From Escherichia coli (GTDB taxonomy: Bacteria; Pseudomonadota; Gammaproteobacteria; Enterobacterales; Enterobacteriaceae), in the NCBI RefSeq assembly GCF_044324875.1, contig NZ_CP172185.1: a stretch of DNA of 64,000 nucleotides; one strand, given 5' to 3'. The notes below the pieces were generated by a model. That model saw nothing but the letters and a program-made list of their open reading frames with translations. It ran no database searches and had not been told where the DNA came from. A program made the translations under genes and the position numbers. This document shows, in pieces, positions 3,174 to 9,525 of the stretch. How positions within the stretch are numbered: position 1 is the first letter of the stretch; each line of letters begins with the position of its first letter.

Positions 3174-3209
3174 CATTTACTCCAATCACGCGGGTACAGA
3201 AACTGACTT

Positions 3210-3413
3210 TTAGTAATTCACCTGGGATGGACCATCGCCAGTGGCGCGGTCGTTTTTATCCGGCACTGTGGATTGCGTTTGCGTCTCTACCGGTTTGGTC
3301 GGCGGTGGTGCGTTTTTATCTGCAGGCGGGAAATAGAGCGGACCTTTCAGACCGCAGCCCGTCAGGCTGAAGAGAGTAAGTAATACAGTGAGTGCCTTAA
3401 ACACGTTTTTCAT
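3210..3413 (-). CDS. yifL: Small lipoprotein YifL (LptM)
   Basis: 67-aa ORF with lipobox LTGC and Pro-rich tail; immediately upstream of dapF as in E. coli. Confidence 0.9.
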   Translation of the reverse strand: MKNVFKALTVLLTLFSLTGCGLKGPLYFPPADKNAPPPTKPVETQTQSTVPDKNDRATGDGPSQVNY

Positions 3414-3490
3414 TATGGATTGCCTGTAAAGTTCATCGCTTTCTGCTTTCTATCATCGCAGGAGAAGGCGTAAAAGCAAGCGTTTAGCGA

Positions 3491-3670
3491 CTCTTTATGA
3501 AGTCTGAAAAGTGAGGAAATGCTGCGAGTATAACGCTTACACGTGGCGATTTATGTTTTGCTGGTAGTTTCGTGATCAACACCTCGTGCCAGGATGGCTT
3601 TATGCACTATCGCAATGTGGTTTGTTTGTTGTCTTGTTCGTTGTTTTTATCGTCGGCATGGGGCTTTTAA
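3491..3670 (+). repeat. Copy 1 of conserved 5' leader module of the islet paralogs (decayed)
   Basis: About 175 bp alignable by eye to 4579-4760 and in part to 7455-7565; contains AGGA RBS and ATG. Confidence 0.7.
3602..3670 (+). pseudogene. Truncated signal-peptide remnant of an islet paralog
   Basis: 22-codon frame MHYRNVVCLLSCSLFLSSAWGF-stop; same signal peptide as the ORFs at 4688 and 7498 but the Cys after AWG is replaced by Phe and followed by TAA. Confidence 0.5.
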
Positions 3671-3761
3671 AAGAGTGGCGCACCATGCAATTTCGTTGTC
3701 TGACCTTAGTCGCCAGTGACATACAGCTTTGCCAACCTGGTGATAAGAGGGAAAAAATCTG

Positions 3762-4316
3762 ATGGGGCTATTTACCCAACTGGAAAAATTTGACCAAAAG
3801 CTTACGCGCGGTTATGCCCGCTGGGGGCGCTGGGTATGGCGGACGTTAATTGTCGTTCCAATACTGGTCGTATTGTGGAATATAGGGCAGGCAGTATGGG
3901 GAGGACCAAGAGGTGGAGTGATTCTGGAAATCCACAGTGAAATTGACCGCCCGATACTGGGATTCAGTGTTAACGGCGTGGCGGGCGCGAATGCTTTTGC
4001 GAATGGTGGCGGTTCAATCACCTGTTGCGGTGATGTCAGTGGGGATACGGCAGAGGTTATCTGGACATTAAGTACTACTCGTACACAGTATAATGCTGGA
4101 ATGCGTCTGGAGAAACGCAATATGACGTTACCTCTCCCAAAAAGAGAATGGGGAGAAAATTATCTGCACGTGCATTTTATGCCTGGCGATAAAGTGTTGC
4201 TGGGGTGGAGTAAAGATTCTTTTTCTCCGTATGAAGATCTTCACAACGGGGGGTACAAGACCCGCGTTCGGCAGGATGTGAAAGATAAACTTTATGGCAC
4301 AGGAAAAATGAATTGA
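3762..4316 (+). CDS. Hypothetical membrane-anchored protein (184 aa)
   Basis: ORF with purine-rich RBS upstream; N-terminal hydrophobic segment TLIVVPILVVLWNIGQAVW; Gly-rich region and CC dipeptide; no recognised family. Confidence 0.55.
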   Translation: MGLFTQLEKFDQKLTRGYARWGRWVWRTLIVVPILVVLWNIGQAVWGGPRGGVILEIHSEIDRPILGFSVNGVAGANAFANGGGSITCCGDVSGDTAEVIWTLSTTRTQYNAGMRLEKRNMTLPLPKREWGENYLHVHFMPGDKVLLGWSKDSFSPYEDLHNGGYKTRVRQDVKDKLYGTGKMN

Positions 4317-4578
4317 TAGATTTCTATAAAAATCACGTTCGGCAGAAAGCGTAATAATGTGGCGAATGTTAGATACCCGTGGTGGAACCTGGGTACAACT
4401 CGTGAAAGACAATAAAGAAGGCAACGGGGGGCGGAATCCCACCTTGCCTCCCTTCCAGGGGTCAATCCGGAATATTTTTATGCTATTAGCCGTACTATGG
4501 GGCAGTTCCGGGATTGTATTTATATCGTGAATGAAAACATCACCTTTATTCCAGCAACTATCAGAAAATAGCGATGAC

Positions 4579-4760
4579 CTTTATGGATTCTGAAAAGTGA
4601 CGATTTGCTGCGAGAGTTACGCTTACTTGTGAGGATTTATGTTCTGCTGGTAGTTTCGTGATCGGCACCTCACGCCAGGATGGCTTTATGCACTTTCGCA
4701 ATGTGGTTTGTTTGTTGTCTTGTTCGTTGTTCTTATCGCCTGCCTGGGGATGTAAGCTTT
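4579..4760 (+). repeat. Copy 2 of conserved 5' leader module
   Basis: Near-identical to 3491-3670; spans upstream leader, RBS and signal-peptide codons of the ORF starting at 4688. Confidence 0.7.
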
Positions 4761-6130
4761 CATCTGTGGATCCCAATGAGTATCAGCAACAGGGAAAAGG
4801 CGTGGTGTACCTGCGCCCTAATCAAAACACCAATCTTTCGCTACCGAACGTGAATTACAAGCGCCTGCGTCGGTTGGCGAATTTGTTAATTGACCCAGCG
4901 ACACTGGAAGATTGGGAGGAAATACCGCCGTTAACCGATCTGTCTACTGATTATGATGTGAGGGGCGCAAATGCCTGGTATCCTCATTACTCCTGGCATA
5001 GCGATGGTCGCTATATTATTTACGCTGGCAAGATAGTGCAAAATCCTGCGGGTGCACCGCCGGTTGACGTCACGTCATTCAAGGCTTGGGGCGATTTTGC
5101 CGCTGATAAAAATAGCCTCTATTTCAGAGGCGAACGCACGGATGACAATGGTGGTGACAAGCCTTTAGATAGCAAAACACTGCATCAGATGAATTTACCG
5201 CCGCCATGGGAACCTGACGTCCTCGGGCTGATATTGCGTGATGCTAACTTCCTGTATATCAACGGGCATCGTATTGCTGAGACCAATAGTTTCCGCGTGC
5301 TGGCGCAAAAGTCCTGGGATAAGCACGGAAAATTTTCCATGAAGTTTAGCTGCATTCGCAAACCATTCGGCCCCTGGGATACGCTGGCTCGTACACAGAC
5401 GAAGATTATGCTCAACGGCGAACAACTGGATGCCGACCCGGATACCTTCACCGTTGTGCGCTGGATACCTGAAGCATTAATAAGCTGGCGAGATAAAAAC
5501 GGCTTTCACCGAAAGGTACTGGATCAATATGCCCTGGACAGCAATGAGGAATATAGCTGCGGTAGTTTCAATGTAAAGGAACACCGCGTCACCTGGCGTA
5601 GTAGCTTCCCGGGTAAGGGAGCAGAATGCCAACAAGAAGAGATTCCCGGCCTCGATCCTGAACAGTTTCACCCAATTAGCGATGCTGTCGCGCAATATCA
5701 GGACAAGCTGTACGTCATCGAAACAACGCCATTTGACGAGCTCAAGCTGAATATTGTTACGCTTGATGACCCGAAACTGATTATTAATAAGCGCTTCAAC
5801 GCCGGGAAGCGTCACGGTTACTTGCTCACAAGAAAGGGAGACGAGTTTGGGGATTCTGGTTTACAGGTGTTTGAATCCGCCGGGCCGCTCATTTTATTTG
5901 ATAACCACATCCCCAGCGAACGGGAAGCGCATCAGGTTAGCAGCAACCCTTATATCCAAAAATGGTTAGCCCGCGACGACAAATATGTTTATCGCTTCGA
6001 TGGCATGCAGCTCTGGCGCTATCACACCGCAGATCCCCGAGCCGTGCGCGTCGTGAACGATCAACTCGATGACAAAATTAACGGTGATGGCGAGTTTATA
6101 CCCACTCCGCGCGATGAGGCTAAAAAATGA
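4688..6130 (+). CDS. Secreted or lipoprotein-like repeat protein, paralog 1 (DKNYY-like repeats)
   Basis: Track ORF 4658-6130 (GTG); the conserved ATG at 4688 with AGGA RBS is preferred; signal peptide MHFRNVVCLLSCSLFLSPAWG-C; repeated units with D-x-x-[ST]-F and D-[KDN]-x-[YL]-[VL]-Y motifs. Confidence 0.75.
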   Translation: MHFRNVVCLLSCSLFLSPAWGCKLSSVDPNEYQQQGKGVVYLRPNQNTNLSLPNVNYKRLRRLANLLIDPATLEDWEEIPPLTDLSTDYDVRGANAWYPHYSWHSDGRYIIYAGKIVQNPAGAPPVDVTSFKAWGDFAADKNSLYFRGERTDDNGGDKPLDSKTLHQMNLPPPWEPDVLGLILRDANFLYINGHRIAETNSFRVLAQKSWDKHGKFSMKFSCIRKPFGPWDTLARTQTKIMLNGEQLDADPDTFTVVRWIPEALISWRDKNGFHRKVLDQYALDSNEEYSCGSFNVKEHRVTWRSSFPGKGAECQQEEIPGLDPEQFHPISDAVAQYQDKLYVIETTPFDELKLNIVTLDDPKLIINKRFNAGKRHGYLLTRKGDEFGDSGLQVFESAGPLILFDNHIPSEREAHQVSSNPYIQKWLARDDKYVYRFDGMQLWRYHTADPRAVRVVNDQLDDKINGDGEFIPTPRDEAKK

Positions 6131-7437
6131 AAGTGATGAAAAAAAGTATCTCACTGGCGCTCATCCTGTTGGGGTACACGGTGGCAATTCCGGCCGTCCA
6201 GGCTGAAGGGTACGAATACTACTCTAACCAGGGAGCCCTGGTTTACGGTTCAAACTTCGGGGGACAAAAGAAAATCATTGCCAAGTTTACGGGAATTAAC
6301 AGACGCGATTTGTACCCTGTGGAAAATATCTCTGGCGAGCAGGAACGATATATTATCGAAGATGAAGTCACCACAATTAAAGAGGAGTACCACTGGATAA
6401 CGGACGGTCACGTCATTCTCTGGCGAGGGAAAATCGTGAGTAATCCTCCCGGTACGCCAATGGTCGATGTTGCCAGCTTTAAGGCTCTGGGCCGCTTCGC
6501 CGTCGATAAATACAGTCTCTATTTTGACGGTCAGCGCACCGAAAGCAATAGCGGTGCTTCGAAGGTGGACCTGGCAACCCTAAAAGCTATCGAAGATAAC
6601 AGCAGCACGCTGGTTGACCGACATAACCTTTATTTATTGGGACGCAGGCAGGCCAGTAGCGACGATTTCAGCGTACTACAAAGTAAATTGTGGGGGGATA
6701 TCGAGCGGTTCCGCCCACGCAATGAAGGGGCTACCTCCCGCGACCTGCTTATTCGTCATCGCCAGGATGTGTTTCTCAATGGTCAGCGCATTGCAGACGT
6801 TGATGCTGACACCTTTCACATCATTCGATGGATCCCCAATTCATTATTGGTCTACCGCGACAAACATGGTGAGCACCGTTACGCCTATGGCAACCCGGCC
6901 GGAAAAATGGCAACGACCGATGATGCGAATTCGTTTGAAATCGGTGAAAAAACCGTCCGCTGGCGCAGGCAACTCGCGCGGGATGACGCCTGGCCCACGC
7001 AACTCTCGTGGGATGTCATATGGGGGGCCTGGCAGGATATTCCCAATGTTGATCCGGAACAGTTCCATCTGATCACTGACCGCATCGCGCAGTATCAGGA
7101 TCGTCTGTATATCATCAAACTGTCGCCAGTTGGCGAAGACCAGCTTAACGTTATCACCCTGGATACCCCTGATTTAGTGGTTGATCACGTCTTCAATGGT
7201 GGGAAAAAGCACATTTATATTATCAAGGACAGAGCGTGGGTGCAGGATGTTCATGTGATTGCTACCCACGGTCCACTCACCATGGCTGAGAGTTTCGCCT
7301 GGGACGATCGCTATGTATATGCCTGGCGGGGCCAGCGACCTTCCAGAACTGAATCGCCATGTCCGGAGCAAACCGTTGAGCAGGATGATGGCATAGTCAT
7401 TAAGACCGAAGCATCAGAGTGCCACCGCACGCCGTAA
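6127..7437 (+). CDS. Secreted repeat protein, paralog 2 (DKNYY-like repeats)
   Basis: 436-aa ORF; start ATG overlaps the stop of the upstream paralog (ATGA); classical Sec signal MKVMKKSISLALILLGYTVAIPAVQA; repeat motifs VDVASF, DKYSLYF, DDRYVY; Cys-containing C-terminal tail. Confidence 0.75.
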   Translation: MKVMKKSISLALILLGYTVAIPAVQAEGYEYYSNQGALVYGSNFGGQKKIIAKFTGINRRDLYPVENISGEQERYIIEDEVTTIKEEYHWITDGHVILWRGKIVSNPPGTPMVDVASFKALGRFAVDKYSLYFDGQRTESNSGASKVDLATLKAIEDNSSTLVDRHNLYLLGRRQASSDDFSVLQSKLWGDIERFRPRNEGATSRDLLIRHRQDVFLNGQRIADVDADTFHIIRWIPNSLLVYRDKHGEHRYAYGNPAGKMATTDDANSFEIGEKTVRWRRQLARDDAWPTQLSWDVIWGAWQDIPNVDPEQFHLITDRIAQYQDRLYIIKLSPVGEDQLNVITLDTPDLVVDHVFNGGKKHIYIIKDRAWVQDVHVIATHGPLTMAESFAWDDRYVYAWRGQRPSRTESPCPEQTVEQDDGIVIKTEASECHRTP

Positions 7438-7454
7438 AATGGGTCATTATTTTT

Positions 7455-7565
7455 AACGGGTAGTTTCATGATCAACACCTCGCGCCAGGATGGCTTTATG
7501 CACTATCGCAATGTGGTTTGTTTGTTGTCTTGTTCATTGTTTTTATCGTCGGCATGGGGATGTCG
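7455..7565 (+). repeat. Copy 3 of conserved 5' leader module
   Basis: About 110 bp matching the 3' part of copies 1 and 2 (RBS plus signal-peptide codons). Confidence 0.7.
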
Positions 7566-9525
7566 GCTTTCCGCGCCTGAACATAATATTTACCAGAAAC
7601 AGGGAAAAGGCGTGGTATACCTGCGCCCTTATAAAGAAACAAATCTTTCTCTTCCTGACGTGAATTACAAAAGTTTGCGCCGTTTACCCAATTTATTAAT
7701 AGACCCGACAACACTAGACGAATGGGATAAAGAACCGCCTCTGACTGATTTGACAACCGACTACCTCTATGAGGGCGCACAGGCCTGGTATCCTCATTAT
7801 TCCTGGCATAGCGATGGTCGCAATATCCTCTACGCGGGTGAAGTTGTGCAAAACCCTCCCGGCACACCTCCCGTCGATGTCGCCTCGTTCAAGGCATGGG
7901 GTGATTTTGCCGCAGATAAACACAGTCTCTATTTTGAAGGCAAGCGCACCGATGACAATGGCGGAGAAAATAGTCTAGATATCAAAACGCTGCATCAGGT
8001 GAAATTCCGTTCCCCCTGGAAACCTGACTTACTGGGGCTGATATTACGTGACGCTAATTTCTTGTATATCAATGGGCATCGCCTCGCTGACCCCGAGAGT
8101 TTCCGTGTGCTGGCGCAAAAGTCCTGGGATCGGCGAGGAAAGTTTTCCGCCGAGTTTAACCCCTGCGTTGCCGTACCATTTGGCCCCTGGGATACGTTAG
8201 CCCGTACACGGACCAAAATCATAATCAATGGCGAACAGCTTACAGCCGACCCAGAGACATTTACTGTCGTGCGCTGGATGCCCAGTTCGTTATTAACCTG
8301 GCGTGATAAAAACGGGCTGCAGCGTAAAGTGCTGAATCAGGGAAATCTGGACAAAGATAGGGCAAATAGCTGTGCAACGTTCAATTTACAGGAACACTTT
8401 GTTTCATGGCGCAAAGGGCCAGAATGTCAGCAAGAAGTCCTACCCGGCCTCGATCCAGAACAATTTCACCCTCTTAGTAATACCGTTGCTCAGTATCAGG
8501 ACAAGCTGTACACCATCAAAAAAACGGAATTTGGCGAAAATAGGCTAGATATCGTCACACTGGATAATCCTGGTTTGGTGATAGATAAACGCTTTAACGC
8601 GGGAAGAACTCACGGCTATTTATTGACCAAATTACCAGCTGATGGTGAAGAAGAAGATGGCCTCCAGGTATTCGAGTCTTCCGGGCCGCTTATCCTGATG
8701 GATTATCGTGTTCCTGACGAGCATGAGGCTCACCTTAGCGATAGCCCCCATTACAAGAAATGGTATGCACACGACGATCGTTATGTTTACGCATTCGATG
8801 GCTCACAGCTTTGGCGCTACCCAACTCCCAATACCAAAGCCGTGCGGGTGAAATGGAAAACCAAAGATTCAGGATATGGCTATTGGGCAAACTACCGTAG
8901 TGGTGAGCTTGACGGCAGACTTCTTGAGGATGGTGCGTTTATTCCAACGGGAATCCCCTATAACTCATCCGTTAACATTGCTCAATATTCTGATGGCGAA
9001 GGCTCTTTTCTCGTCGGCGAAACCGATGTTAGCTGGCGTAAGCTTCGCTCTACAGACCAGCAATGGAGTCAATGGGAGAAACTCCCCGATATTGACCCGA
9101 AAGCATTTCATCCCATCACCGATCGTGTCGCGCAGTACAAAAATCATCTGTACATTGCGAAATTGTCTCCTTTTGGTGAAGACACCCTGGAGATAATAAC
9201 GCTCGACTCTTCTGCACCTTTCCTGAAACAACGAATTAACGCCGGGAAAGGCCATGGTTACTTTATGCGCTCTTCCCGTTTACGCGATGATATTCAAATT
9301 TTTGCTATTGATGGACCATTGAAAACCACCGAACGTTTCGCTTATGACAATCGCTATGTTTATACCTGGATCGGTAGCCAACTTTATCGAACCGCATCGC
9401 CCTGTCCGGCCAGGACACGTAATCTGGATCAGAACATGTTTTCATCCAATGATGACATCATCATCCTGAAGACGGAGGAAGAGTGCCACAAAACACCAGA
9501 CATTGAGCAAACTTTGAAGCCCTGA
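7498..9525 (+). CDS. Secreted or lipoprotein-like repeat protein, paralog 3 (long mosaic form)
   Basis: Track ORF 7468-9525; conserved ATG at 7498; N-terminal two thirds closely similar to paralog 1 at DNA level; C-terminal third resembles the C-terminus of paralog 2 including the SPCP...ECH[KR]TP tail. Confidence 0.75.
   Translation: MHYRNVVCLLSCSLFLSSAWGCRLSAPEHNIYQKQGKGVVYLRPYKETNLSLPDVNYKSLRRLPNLLIDPTTLDEWDKEPPLTDLTTDYLYEGAQAWYPHYSWHSDGRNILYAGEVVQNPPGTPPVDVASFKAWGDFAADKHSLYFEGKRTDDNGGENSLDIKTLHQVKFRSPWKPDLLGLILRDANFLYINGHRLADPESFRVLAQKSWDRRGKFSAEFNPCVAVPFGPWDTLARTRTKIIINGEQLTADPETFTVVRWMPSSLLTWRDKNGLQRKVLNQGNLDKDRANSCATFNLQEHFVSWRKGPECQQEVLPGLDPEQFHPLSNTVAQYQDKLYTIKKTEFGENRLDIVTLDNPGLVIDKRFNAGRTHGYLLTKLPADGEEEDGLQVFESSGPLILMDYRVPDEHEAHLSDSPHYKKWYAHDDRYVYAFDGSQLWRYPTPNTKAVRVKWKTKDSGYGYWANYRSGELDGRLLEDGAFIPTGIPYNSSVNIAQYSDGEGSFLVGETDVSWRKLRSTDQQWSQWEKLPDIDPKAFHPITDRVAQYKNHLYIAKLSPFGEDTLEIITLDSSAPFLKQRINAGKGHGYFMRSSRLRDDIQIFAIDGPLKTTERFAYDNRYVYTWIGSQLYRTASPCPARTRNLDQNMFSSNDDIIILKTEEECHKTPDIEQTLKP

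Follow-up and report, generated by a model that had tools for sequence, protein, structure and literature searches.

The 184-residue open reading frame (ORF) at positions 3762–4316 of the analysed window, a stretch of 64,000 nucleotides from the Escherichia coli chromosome, opens an islet of about 6 kb between lptM and cyaY and is recorded in RefSeq as a "DUF3304 domain-containing protein" (WP_000522548.1). We consider it likely that this ORF represents an orphan immunity gene of the Tli1 (DUF3304) type, which stems from an effector module of a type VI secretion system (T6SS) and whose product, by analogy with characterised Tli1 proteins, would bind a Tle1 phospholipase and protect the cell against it. 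The gene is classified as an orphan because no effector is encoded beside it, while its homologs have one; neither an effector nor a vgrG nor an intact adaptor gene was seen in its vicinity. The surroundings, with the minus-strand order yigB-xerC-yigA-dapF-lptM, then cyaY, and cyaA and hemC further on, are those of the E. coli chromosome, and behind the DUF3304 ORF the islet carries three DKNYY-like lipoprotein genes. The window sequence recurs with 100% identity in strain C4 and 13 other complete genomes. A literature search found no paper describing the DUF3304 gene of the window or the lptM-cyaY islet.

A first-pass annotation had described the product as a protein of 184 residues with a hydrophobic N-terminal segment, a Gly-rich stretch and a CC dipeptide, without similarity to the three repeat paralogs of the islet, and had regarded it either as an accessory partner of these proteins or as an independent cassette. 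The description proved to be accurate and the ORF to be real; that it might be spurious is ruled out by 419 homologs at E ≤ 1e-3, by the RefSeq entry and by purifying selection (see below). The protein is indeed unlike the three DKNYY paralogs (best blastp E-value 8.7), and the Pfam profile DKNYY (PF13644) does not match it.

Domain family and T6SS context of the homologs

The Pfam family DUF3304 (PF11745) matches residues 63–145 of the window protein over profile positions 6–95 of 97 (21.6 bits, E = 3e-4), and no other Pfam family matches at E ≤ 1. For this stretch, relatives with 86% and 67% identity to the window protein reach 31.0 and 25.3 bits, and 35 of 36 aligned relatives match the profile at E ≤ 1e-3. 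The NCBIfam model Tli1a_fam gives 19.4 bits (cut-off 110) in an alignment restricted to residues 62–110; it is matched weakly by all 36 relatives (best E 4.3e-7), each far below the equivalog cut-off. Judged from these profile matches, the window protein is related to Pseudomonas aeruginosa Tli1a at the level of the domain and is no equivalog of it. The 419 homologs mentioned above were obtained by a word-indexed search; those with an organism name, among the matches listed, all belong to the Enterobacterales and are typically 57–68% identical and 170–184 residues long. An exhaustive search of 50%-identity representatives retrieved just 78 homologs and therefore indicates a compact subfamily. 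One representative of 854 residues (P0168) contains 11 matched DUF3304-like stretches and is thus a long tandem-repeat DUF3304 protein.

DUF3304 occurs in immunity proteins against Tle1 phospholipases of Burkholderia thailandensis, Klebsiella pneumoniae, P. aeruginosa and others (PMC13133936). Tli1a of P. aeruginosa is a lipoprotein of the outer membrane; its DUF3304 beta-sandwich has been modelled binding Tle1, and the gene order is vgrG4a-tla1(DUF4123)-tli1b-tli1a-tle1 (PMC13133936). In K. pneumoniae a tandem tli1 array upstream of tle1 protects in competition assays (PMC5649205), and in a survey of Klebsiella no domain was encountered downstream of vgrG genes more often than DUF3304 (PMC12469244).

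The relatives of the window gene share this context. Nine DUF3304 loci outside the islet, from seven genera, were inspected, and all nine display the order VgrG, DUF4123 protein, DUF3304 protein (one to five copies) and Tle1-like protein of 594–655 residues. Such modules are hosted by Enterobacter cloacae, Citrobacter, Salmonella (two loci), Serratia, Pantoea/Erwiniaceae and Cronobacter and, within E. coli, by ST131-type strains, EC-129 and CREC-2. Their effectors pass the Pfam threshold of T6SS_Tle1-like_cat and the adaptor that of DUF4123. Some modules possess two DUF3304 genes; those of ST131-type E. coli, Citrobacter, Salmonella (locus L009) and Pantoea have a single copy and no other immunity candidate upstream of tle1. 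A DKNYY gene is present at none of the nine loci, and the proposed partnership with the repeat proteins did not hold up in this comparison of gene neighbourhoods, whereas the independent cassette is borne out by the VgrG-DUF4123-DUF3304-Tle1 modules and by DKNYY arrays that exist without DUF3304. Searching seven of these T6SS loci by tblastn with the three DKNYY proteins revealed no relatives and thus no sign of a connection of the DKNYY proteins themselves to T6SS.

The protein contains a single hydrophobic segment, residues 28–47, with a mean Kyte-Doolittle hydropathy of 1.9, which is flanked by six K/R versus two D/E residues on its N-terminal side and by one K/R versus three D/E residues on its C-terminal side. 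By the positive-inside rule, the basic N-flank and the acidic C-flank predict a signal anchor in the inner membrane with N-in/C-out orientation. No lipobox is found in the window protein, C88 and C89 being its only cysteines, and it is not a lipoprotein. Among 143 full-length family members, an N-terminal hydrophobic segment is present in 124, a lipobox in one and the CC dipeptide in 139. The impression in the first-pass annotation of a similarity to small DUF-type lipoproteins near secreted effectors was right as to the effectors, DUF3304 being encoded beside T6SS Tle1, and wrong as to the lipoproteins, the subfamily being anchored by a transmembrane (TM) segment and not lipidated.

The AlphaFold2 (AF2) model of the protein, with a mean predicted local distance difference test score (pLDDT) of 74 and about 80–87 in the core blocks, consists of a helix (residues 3–46), a seven-stranded beta-sandwich (54–150), which is the fold of the DUF3304 domain, and a disordered tail. 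A structural search retrieved no solved relative; the matches were generic beta-sandwiches. Residues G82, G83, G84, C88, C89 and G90 are invariant across 36 aligned sequences, and D11, Y18, W21, W24 and W26 across 15; the N-terminus of the subfamily (MGFF..LEK.D...RGYARWGKWIW), the subsequent hydrophobic stretch and the TCCG motif are conserved throughout. Residues 1–27 (window 3762–3842) are conserved as strongly as the domain core, which exceeds the need of a simple membrane anchor. All aligned close homologs have the vicinal pair C88-C89 (window 4023–4028), and the CC is missing from a few distant family members.

Junctions and origin of the cassette

WP_137088578.1, the product of the first DUF3304 gene in the EC-129 module, aligns with the window protein over its full 184 residues at 96% identity; of the eight differences, only two map to the beta-sandwich. 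Identity to the Salmonella module copies amounts to 85–86%. At the DNA level, the match to the EC-129 module (94.4% over window 3685–4323) starts within the 3'-terminal part of the DUF4123 gene, 77 nt ahead of the ATG, and ends 7 nt past the stop codon. In the coordinates of the EC-129 locus (L012), the DUF4123 coding sequence extends from 4709 to 5533, and window 3685 onward pairs with 5499 onward; an additional 28-nt piece (window 3663–3690) matches 5287–5314 with 93% identity, internal to the same adaptor gene. The short spacer that precedes the ATG (Table 1) is homologous to the DUF4123-DUF3304 intergenic spacer of EC-129.

Ahead of the adaptor pieces lies the decayed leader which the first-pass annotation had noticed and which could be substantiated: it reads VINTSCQDGFMHYRNVVCLLSCSLFLSSAWGF* and, together with the sequence in front of it, repeats the corresponding stretch of DKNYY paralogs 1 and 3. 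By blastx it is 87–94% identical to residues 1–31 of these two paralogs. Window 3493–3663 is 87% identical to 4579–4749, the upstream region and leader of paralog 1, and 3551–3663 is 94% identical to 7447–7559 of paralog 3. On the other side of the cassette, a diverged remnant matches DKNYY paralogs by blastx at about residues 315–354 (E 7e-8 and 2e-7). An empty site has survived in E. coli ABU 83972: window 3200–3663 is 98.5% identical to this strain, the homology ends at 3663, and there the same leader runs into an intact DKNYY-like gene of 489 codons without any DUF3304 gene. In the disrupted DKNYY-like lipoprotein gene, the cassette follows on roughly codon 21. Taken together, the EC-129 homology, the adaptor fragments and the empty site indicate that most of one DKNYY paralog gave way to a piece of a T6SS module.

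Consistent with these data we propose a scenario which starts from a source module composed of VgrG, a DUF4123 adaptor, at least one DUF3304 copy and a Tle1-like DUF2235 phospholipase. The DKNYY-like gene that stood first in the lptM-cyaY islet would have taken up, by recombination, the tail of the adaptor gene together with the first DUF3304 gene. By joining just past the signal-peptide codons, this event would have placed the DUF3304 gene behind the promoter and leader of the DKNYY gene while its own ribosome-binding site was kept, and the DKNYY-type upstream region would now presumably serve as its promoter. The product would insert into the inner membrane by its signal anchor and expose the DUF3304 beta-sandwich in the periplasm, where this domain might capture a Tle1-family phospholipase injected by the T6SS of a rival E. 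coli or Salmonella strain bearing the module; such a neutralisation would prevent the hydrolysis of phospholipids. As the adjacent toxin is absent from the strain, the orphan would act purely as a defence. With the adaptor pieces, the leader splice and the surviving empty site, the locus offers an unusually clean molecular record of the birth of an orphan immunity gene.

Distribution, selection and rival explanations

The distribution of the gene was analysed in 5426 complete E. coli genomes. The orphan arrangement was found in about 1074 of them (~20%), with the O104:H4 and O111:H8 lineages among the carriers. The EC-129-type tle1, which is the closest cognate effector gene, occurs in 43 genomes and is thus ~25 times rarer than the orphan; Tle1-like DNA of any type occurs in 620. 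With the window gene as query, a DUF3304 gene is detectable in 1673 genomes and at least 90% identical in 1163; for 510 genomes the best match falls into the 60–80% band, in which the sampled matches correspond to a 73%-identical paralogue from the ST131-type T6SS module. Extra DUF3304 places amount to 73 in total among the 1673 positive genomes. Module strains such as CREC-2 have two DUF3304 places each, as against one in Ecol_316, which carries a gene identical to the window copy. The few extra places and the single place in Ecol_316 suggest that orphan and module copies are nearly mutually exclusive.

The full-length orphan ORF is intact in every genome of a spread sample. Pairwise Nei-Gojobori comparisons of three orphan alleles yielded ratios of nonsynonymous to synonymous substitution rates (dN/dS) of 0.10–0.32 at dS 0.12–0.17, and comparisons between the orphan and the Salmonella module copies 0.06–0.07. 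The orphan gene is under purifying selection. Strain 98191 has an orphan allele that is less distant from the module copy of CREC-2 (dS 0.085) than from the remaining orphan alleles. Residues 104–113 (window 4071–4100) are mosaic: the sequence DMTHEQYLKG replaces STTRTQYNAG in alleles P0002 and P0007, the same patch is found in P0123, and a second E. cloacae copy carries DITHAQYLKG. These residues may form a specificity patch that is exchanged by gene conversion.

Several points weigh against the assignment as an immunity gene. The Pfam DUF3304 score of the window protein lies 0.4 bits below the gathering threshold of 22. The immunity role is extrapolated from distant Tli1 proteins that are lipoproteins, and a literature search found no experiment on the TM-anchored DUF3304 subfamily. 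In some modules an extra gene follows tle1 and could be an alternative immunity gene. A sigma-70 promoter and terminator scan of 3200–4800, based on consensus sequences, performed no better than on shuffled sequence. The mutual exclusivity of orphan and module copies was deduced from counts and not from a genome-by-genome table. Finally, the degraded alleles P0006 (153 residues, 61 contigs) and P0007 (172 residues, frameshifted) show some ongoing decay; P0006 lacks 31 residues through an in-frame deletion, among them half of the TM segment as well as the first beta-strand, and in P0007 the frameshift affects the C-terminus.

The truncated alleles, the lack of a cognate effector nearby and the position of the gene among remnants (the leader, the DUF4123 fragments and the C-terminal part of a DKNYY gene) might also be taken to mean that a captured fragment merely hitch-hikes without function and slowly decays. 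We regard such a relic as unlikely: the ORF has remained intact throughout the spread sample, the dN/dS values of the orphan alleles are those of a constrained gene, only two of the eight differences from the EC-129 copy fall into the beta-sandwich, and about one fifth of the complete E. coli genomes carry the gene. A partnership with the DKNYY-like lipoproteins, for which the DUF3304 protein would have co-evolved in the islet as membrane anchor or maturation factor, could be read from the gene order, because in E. coli the gene always stands first in the islet, on the same strand as the two to at least four DKNYY paralogs behind it, and no terminator-like site was found between it and paralog 1. 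It is highly improbable in view of DKNYY arrays without DUF3304 at the same locus in four taxa (Citrobacter, Salmonella, Klebsiella spallanzanii and E. coli ABU 83972), of the nine T6SS contexts devoid of a DKNYY gene, and of a cassette which bears DUF4123 fragments and interrupts a DKNYY gene. Moreover, the middle DKNYY paralog of the window occurs in 124 genomes versus 1074 with the DUF3304 arrangement. Because arrays exist without DUF3304 and the genome counts differ, the two gene types have evolved independently of each other, and it is by chance of insertion that they are linked in E. coli.

A further alternative assumes that the TM-anchored DUF3304 subfamily serves, instead of or besides immunity, in the secretion or activation of Tle1, which would leave the orphan with another role or none. 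The strong conservation of the predicted cytoplasmic N-terminal segment (D11, Y18, W21, W24, W26), the position of the gene between adaptor and effector and the presence of two DUF3304 genes in some modules are compatible with this idea, and an immunity protein with a dual role is known from E. cloacae, where a cytosolic pool of Tli activates Tle (10.1101/2023.03.28.534661). That Tli, however, is an ankyrin-repeat lipoprotein and unrelated, in the single-copy modules nothing else upstream of tle1 is a candidate for immunity, and retention under purifying selection in strains without the effector fits a defence better; a secretion or activation factor thus appears quite improbable. The assignment as an orphan Tli1-type immunity gene might be extended to a distinct class of bitopic inner-membrane Tle1-immunity proteins, in which the N-terminal helix would have a function of its own; the lptM-cyaY DKNYY array would then be a hitherto unrecognised landing pad where orphan defence genes are captured and expressed in E. 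coli. The helix may, for example, engage the own Tle1 or DUF4123 adaptor before export, or sense membrane damage. This broader picture is rather unlikely as a whole.

Relation to known systems and further features of the islet

The Tli1 proteins of P. aeruginosa (Tli1a, PA3291), K. pneumoniae (Tli1KP) and B. thailandensis (Tli1) have the DUF3304 beta-sandwich in common with the window protein. In these systems as in the relatives of the window gene, the DUF3304 gene stands behind vgrG with a DUF4123 adaptor gene before it and a Tle1/DUF2235 gene after it, tandem duplication of the immunity gene occurs in both, and the domain is exposed to the periplasm in the Tli1 systems, as is predicted for the window protein. 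The characterised Tli1 proteins differ in being lipoproteins (Tli1a at the outer membrane), whereas the window subfamily has a TM anchor and a conserved, predicted cytoplasmic N-terminus; and they are accompanied by an adjacent Tle1 effector, which the window copy lacks. Within E. coli, the EC-129 copy, with relatives in CREC-2 and Salmonella, shares DNA homology with the window that reaches into the adaptor gene, but it resides in a module vgrG-DUF4123-DUF3304-DUF3304(pseudo)-DUF2235 inside a T6SS cluster, while the window copy stands alone in the islet. The literature searched contains no experimental characterisation of the EC-129 module protein or of the window protein.

Orphan immunity genes are an established concept, and what distinguishes the window gene from the characterised Tli1 systems is anchoring by a TM segment in place of a lipid and its orphaned state. 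Like the orphans in the T6SS arrays of Vibrio cholerae, the Bacteroidales acquired interbacterial defence (AID) clusters and those related to E. coli Hcp-ET (PMC6730261, PMC12469244), it has no adjacent cognate effector, is highly similar to an immunity gene that is paired with an effector in other strains, and is far more prevalent than that effector. It differs from these arrays in that it is a single gene, lies apart from T6SS clusters and from recombinase-associated arrays, and sits within an unrelated, disrupted lipoprotein gene whose upstream region it apparently uses.

Two other immunity proteins were evaluated and set aside. Tli1 of enteroaggregative E. coli (EAEC; Sci-1 T6SS) is likewise proposed to neutralise a Tle1-family phospholipase in the periplasm; being a DUF2931 outer-membrane lipoprotein encoded downstream of tle1, it was rejected as the closest E. 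coli relative of the window protein, which has no DUF2931 match. Tli of E. cloacae (Hayes laboratory) was dropped as a DUF3304 homolog on account of its ankyrin-repeat architecture.

If the gene does protect, about one in five sequenced E. coli would be immune to a Tle1-class T6SS lipase that is deployed by about 1%, which would affect which strains can displace others in the gut and would matter for designing T6SS-armed probiotics. The locus also marks the TM-anchored DUF3304 subfamily as a Tli1 variant worth testing.

Table 1. Features of the DUF3304 cassette and its flanks (window coordinates), and a gene following tle1 at three module loci (coordinates of these loci).
Feature	Position	Strand	Basis or remark
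DKNYY-gene upstream-region copy, presumed promoter and 5' untranslated region	3493..3571	+	repeat of the paralog 1 upstream region
Decayed DKNYY lipoprotein leader, VINTSCQDGFMHYRNVVCLLSCSLFLSSAWGF*, TAA end	3572..3670	+	signal-peptide remnant severed at the cassette junction
Two fragments from the 3' part of the DUF4123 adaptor gene	3663..3719	+	matches to L012; end near 3719 inferred from the alignment
Module-derived spacer with Shine-Dalgarno-like GAGGG (3747-3751)	3720..3761	+	GAGGG 10 nt ahead of the ATG
Orphan DUF3304 (probable Tli1-type) gene	3762..4316	+	ATG start, 184 residues; ORF listing, Pfam, RefSeq, homologs, dN/dS below 1
N-terminal segment, residues 1-27, predicted cytoplasmic	3762..3842	+	conserved, basic; helical in the AF2 model
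Single TM signal anchor (predicted), residues 28-47	3843..3902	+	Kyte-Doolittle 1.9, no lipobox
DUF3304 beta-sandwich, residues 54-150, predicted periplasmic	3921..4211	+	Pfam PF11745, AF2 model
Gly-rich stretch with CC, residues 82-95, GGGSITCCGDVSGD	4005..4046	+	invariant residues in the alignment
Diverged DKNYY-like C-terminal remnant, ...LPGVNPEYFYAISRTMGQFRDCIYIVNENITFIPATIRK*	4425..4571	+	downstream of the cassette; blastx
Second DKNYY upstream region and leader copy	4579..4749	+	belongs to intact paralog 1, ORF 4658-6130
Post-effector gene, 164-177 residues	L008:5289-5783, L009:10435-10929 (Salmonella); L021:8371-8904 (Pantoea)		

A GTG-initiated ORF of 58 codons at 3586–3762 is probably spurious and was treated as such: it reads in the wrong frame through the leader remnant and the DUF4123 fragments. 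Its TGA stop overlaps the DUF3304 start codon (ATG), no Pfam family matches it meaningfully, and it is absent from the RefSeq annotation.

The DKNYY-like array of the window (4658–9525) has counterparts (loci L016–L019) in Citrobacter, Salmonella, K. spallanzanii and E. coli with copy numbers from one to at least four; a literature search on DKNYY found no relevant paper. The terminal DKNYY gene of the O104:H4 type was matched in 4739 of the 5426 genomes, in 1408 of them with at least 80% coverage. In the matches sampled from the remaining genomes, only its last ~77 nt (L013:9647–9723) are left beside cyaY, in unannotated DNA. This pattern suggests that the array is ancestral and has been deleted in most E. 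coli lineages. The islet alleles differ by 3–7% in DNA; over the 1.6 kb of 3200–4800 the window is 93.4% identical to O104:H4 and 97.0% to strain 98191. Such a divergence is well above that typical of the E. coli core genome and suggests old allelic lineages or frequent recombination at the islet.

Two observations concern the T6SS modules. The conserved gene listed last in Table 1, which belongs to no Pfam family, lies directly 3' of the Tle1-like effector gene in some of them and could encode a second immunity protein or an accessory protein. In Cronobacter dublinensis (L022:5252–10525), five genes for proteins of 173–182 residues, with ORFs of 45 and 65 codons interleaved, precede the Tle1-like gene; a DUF3304 match is recorded for two of the five, and the array resembles the fourfold tli1 array of K. 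pneumoniae (PMC5649205).

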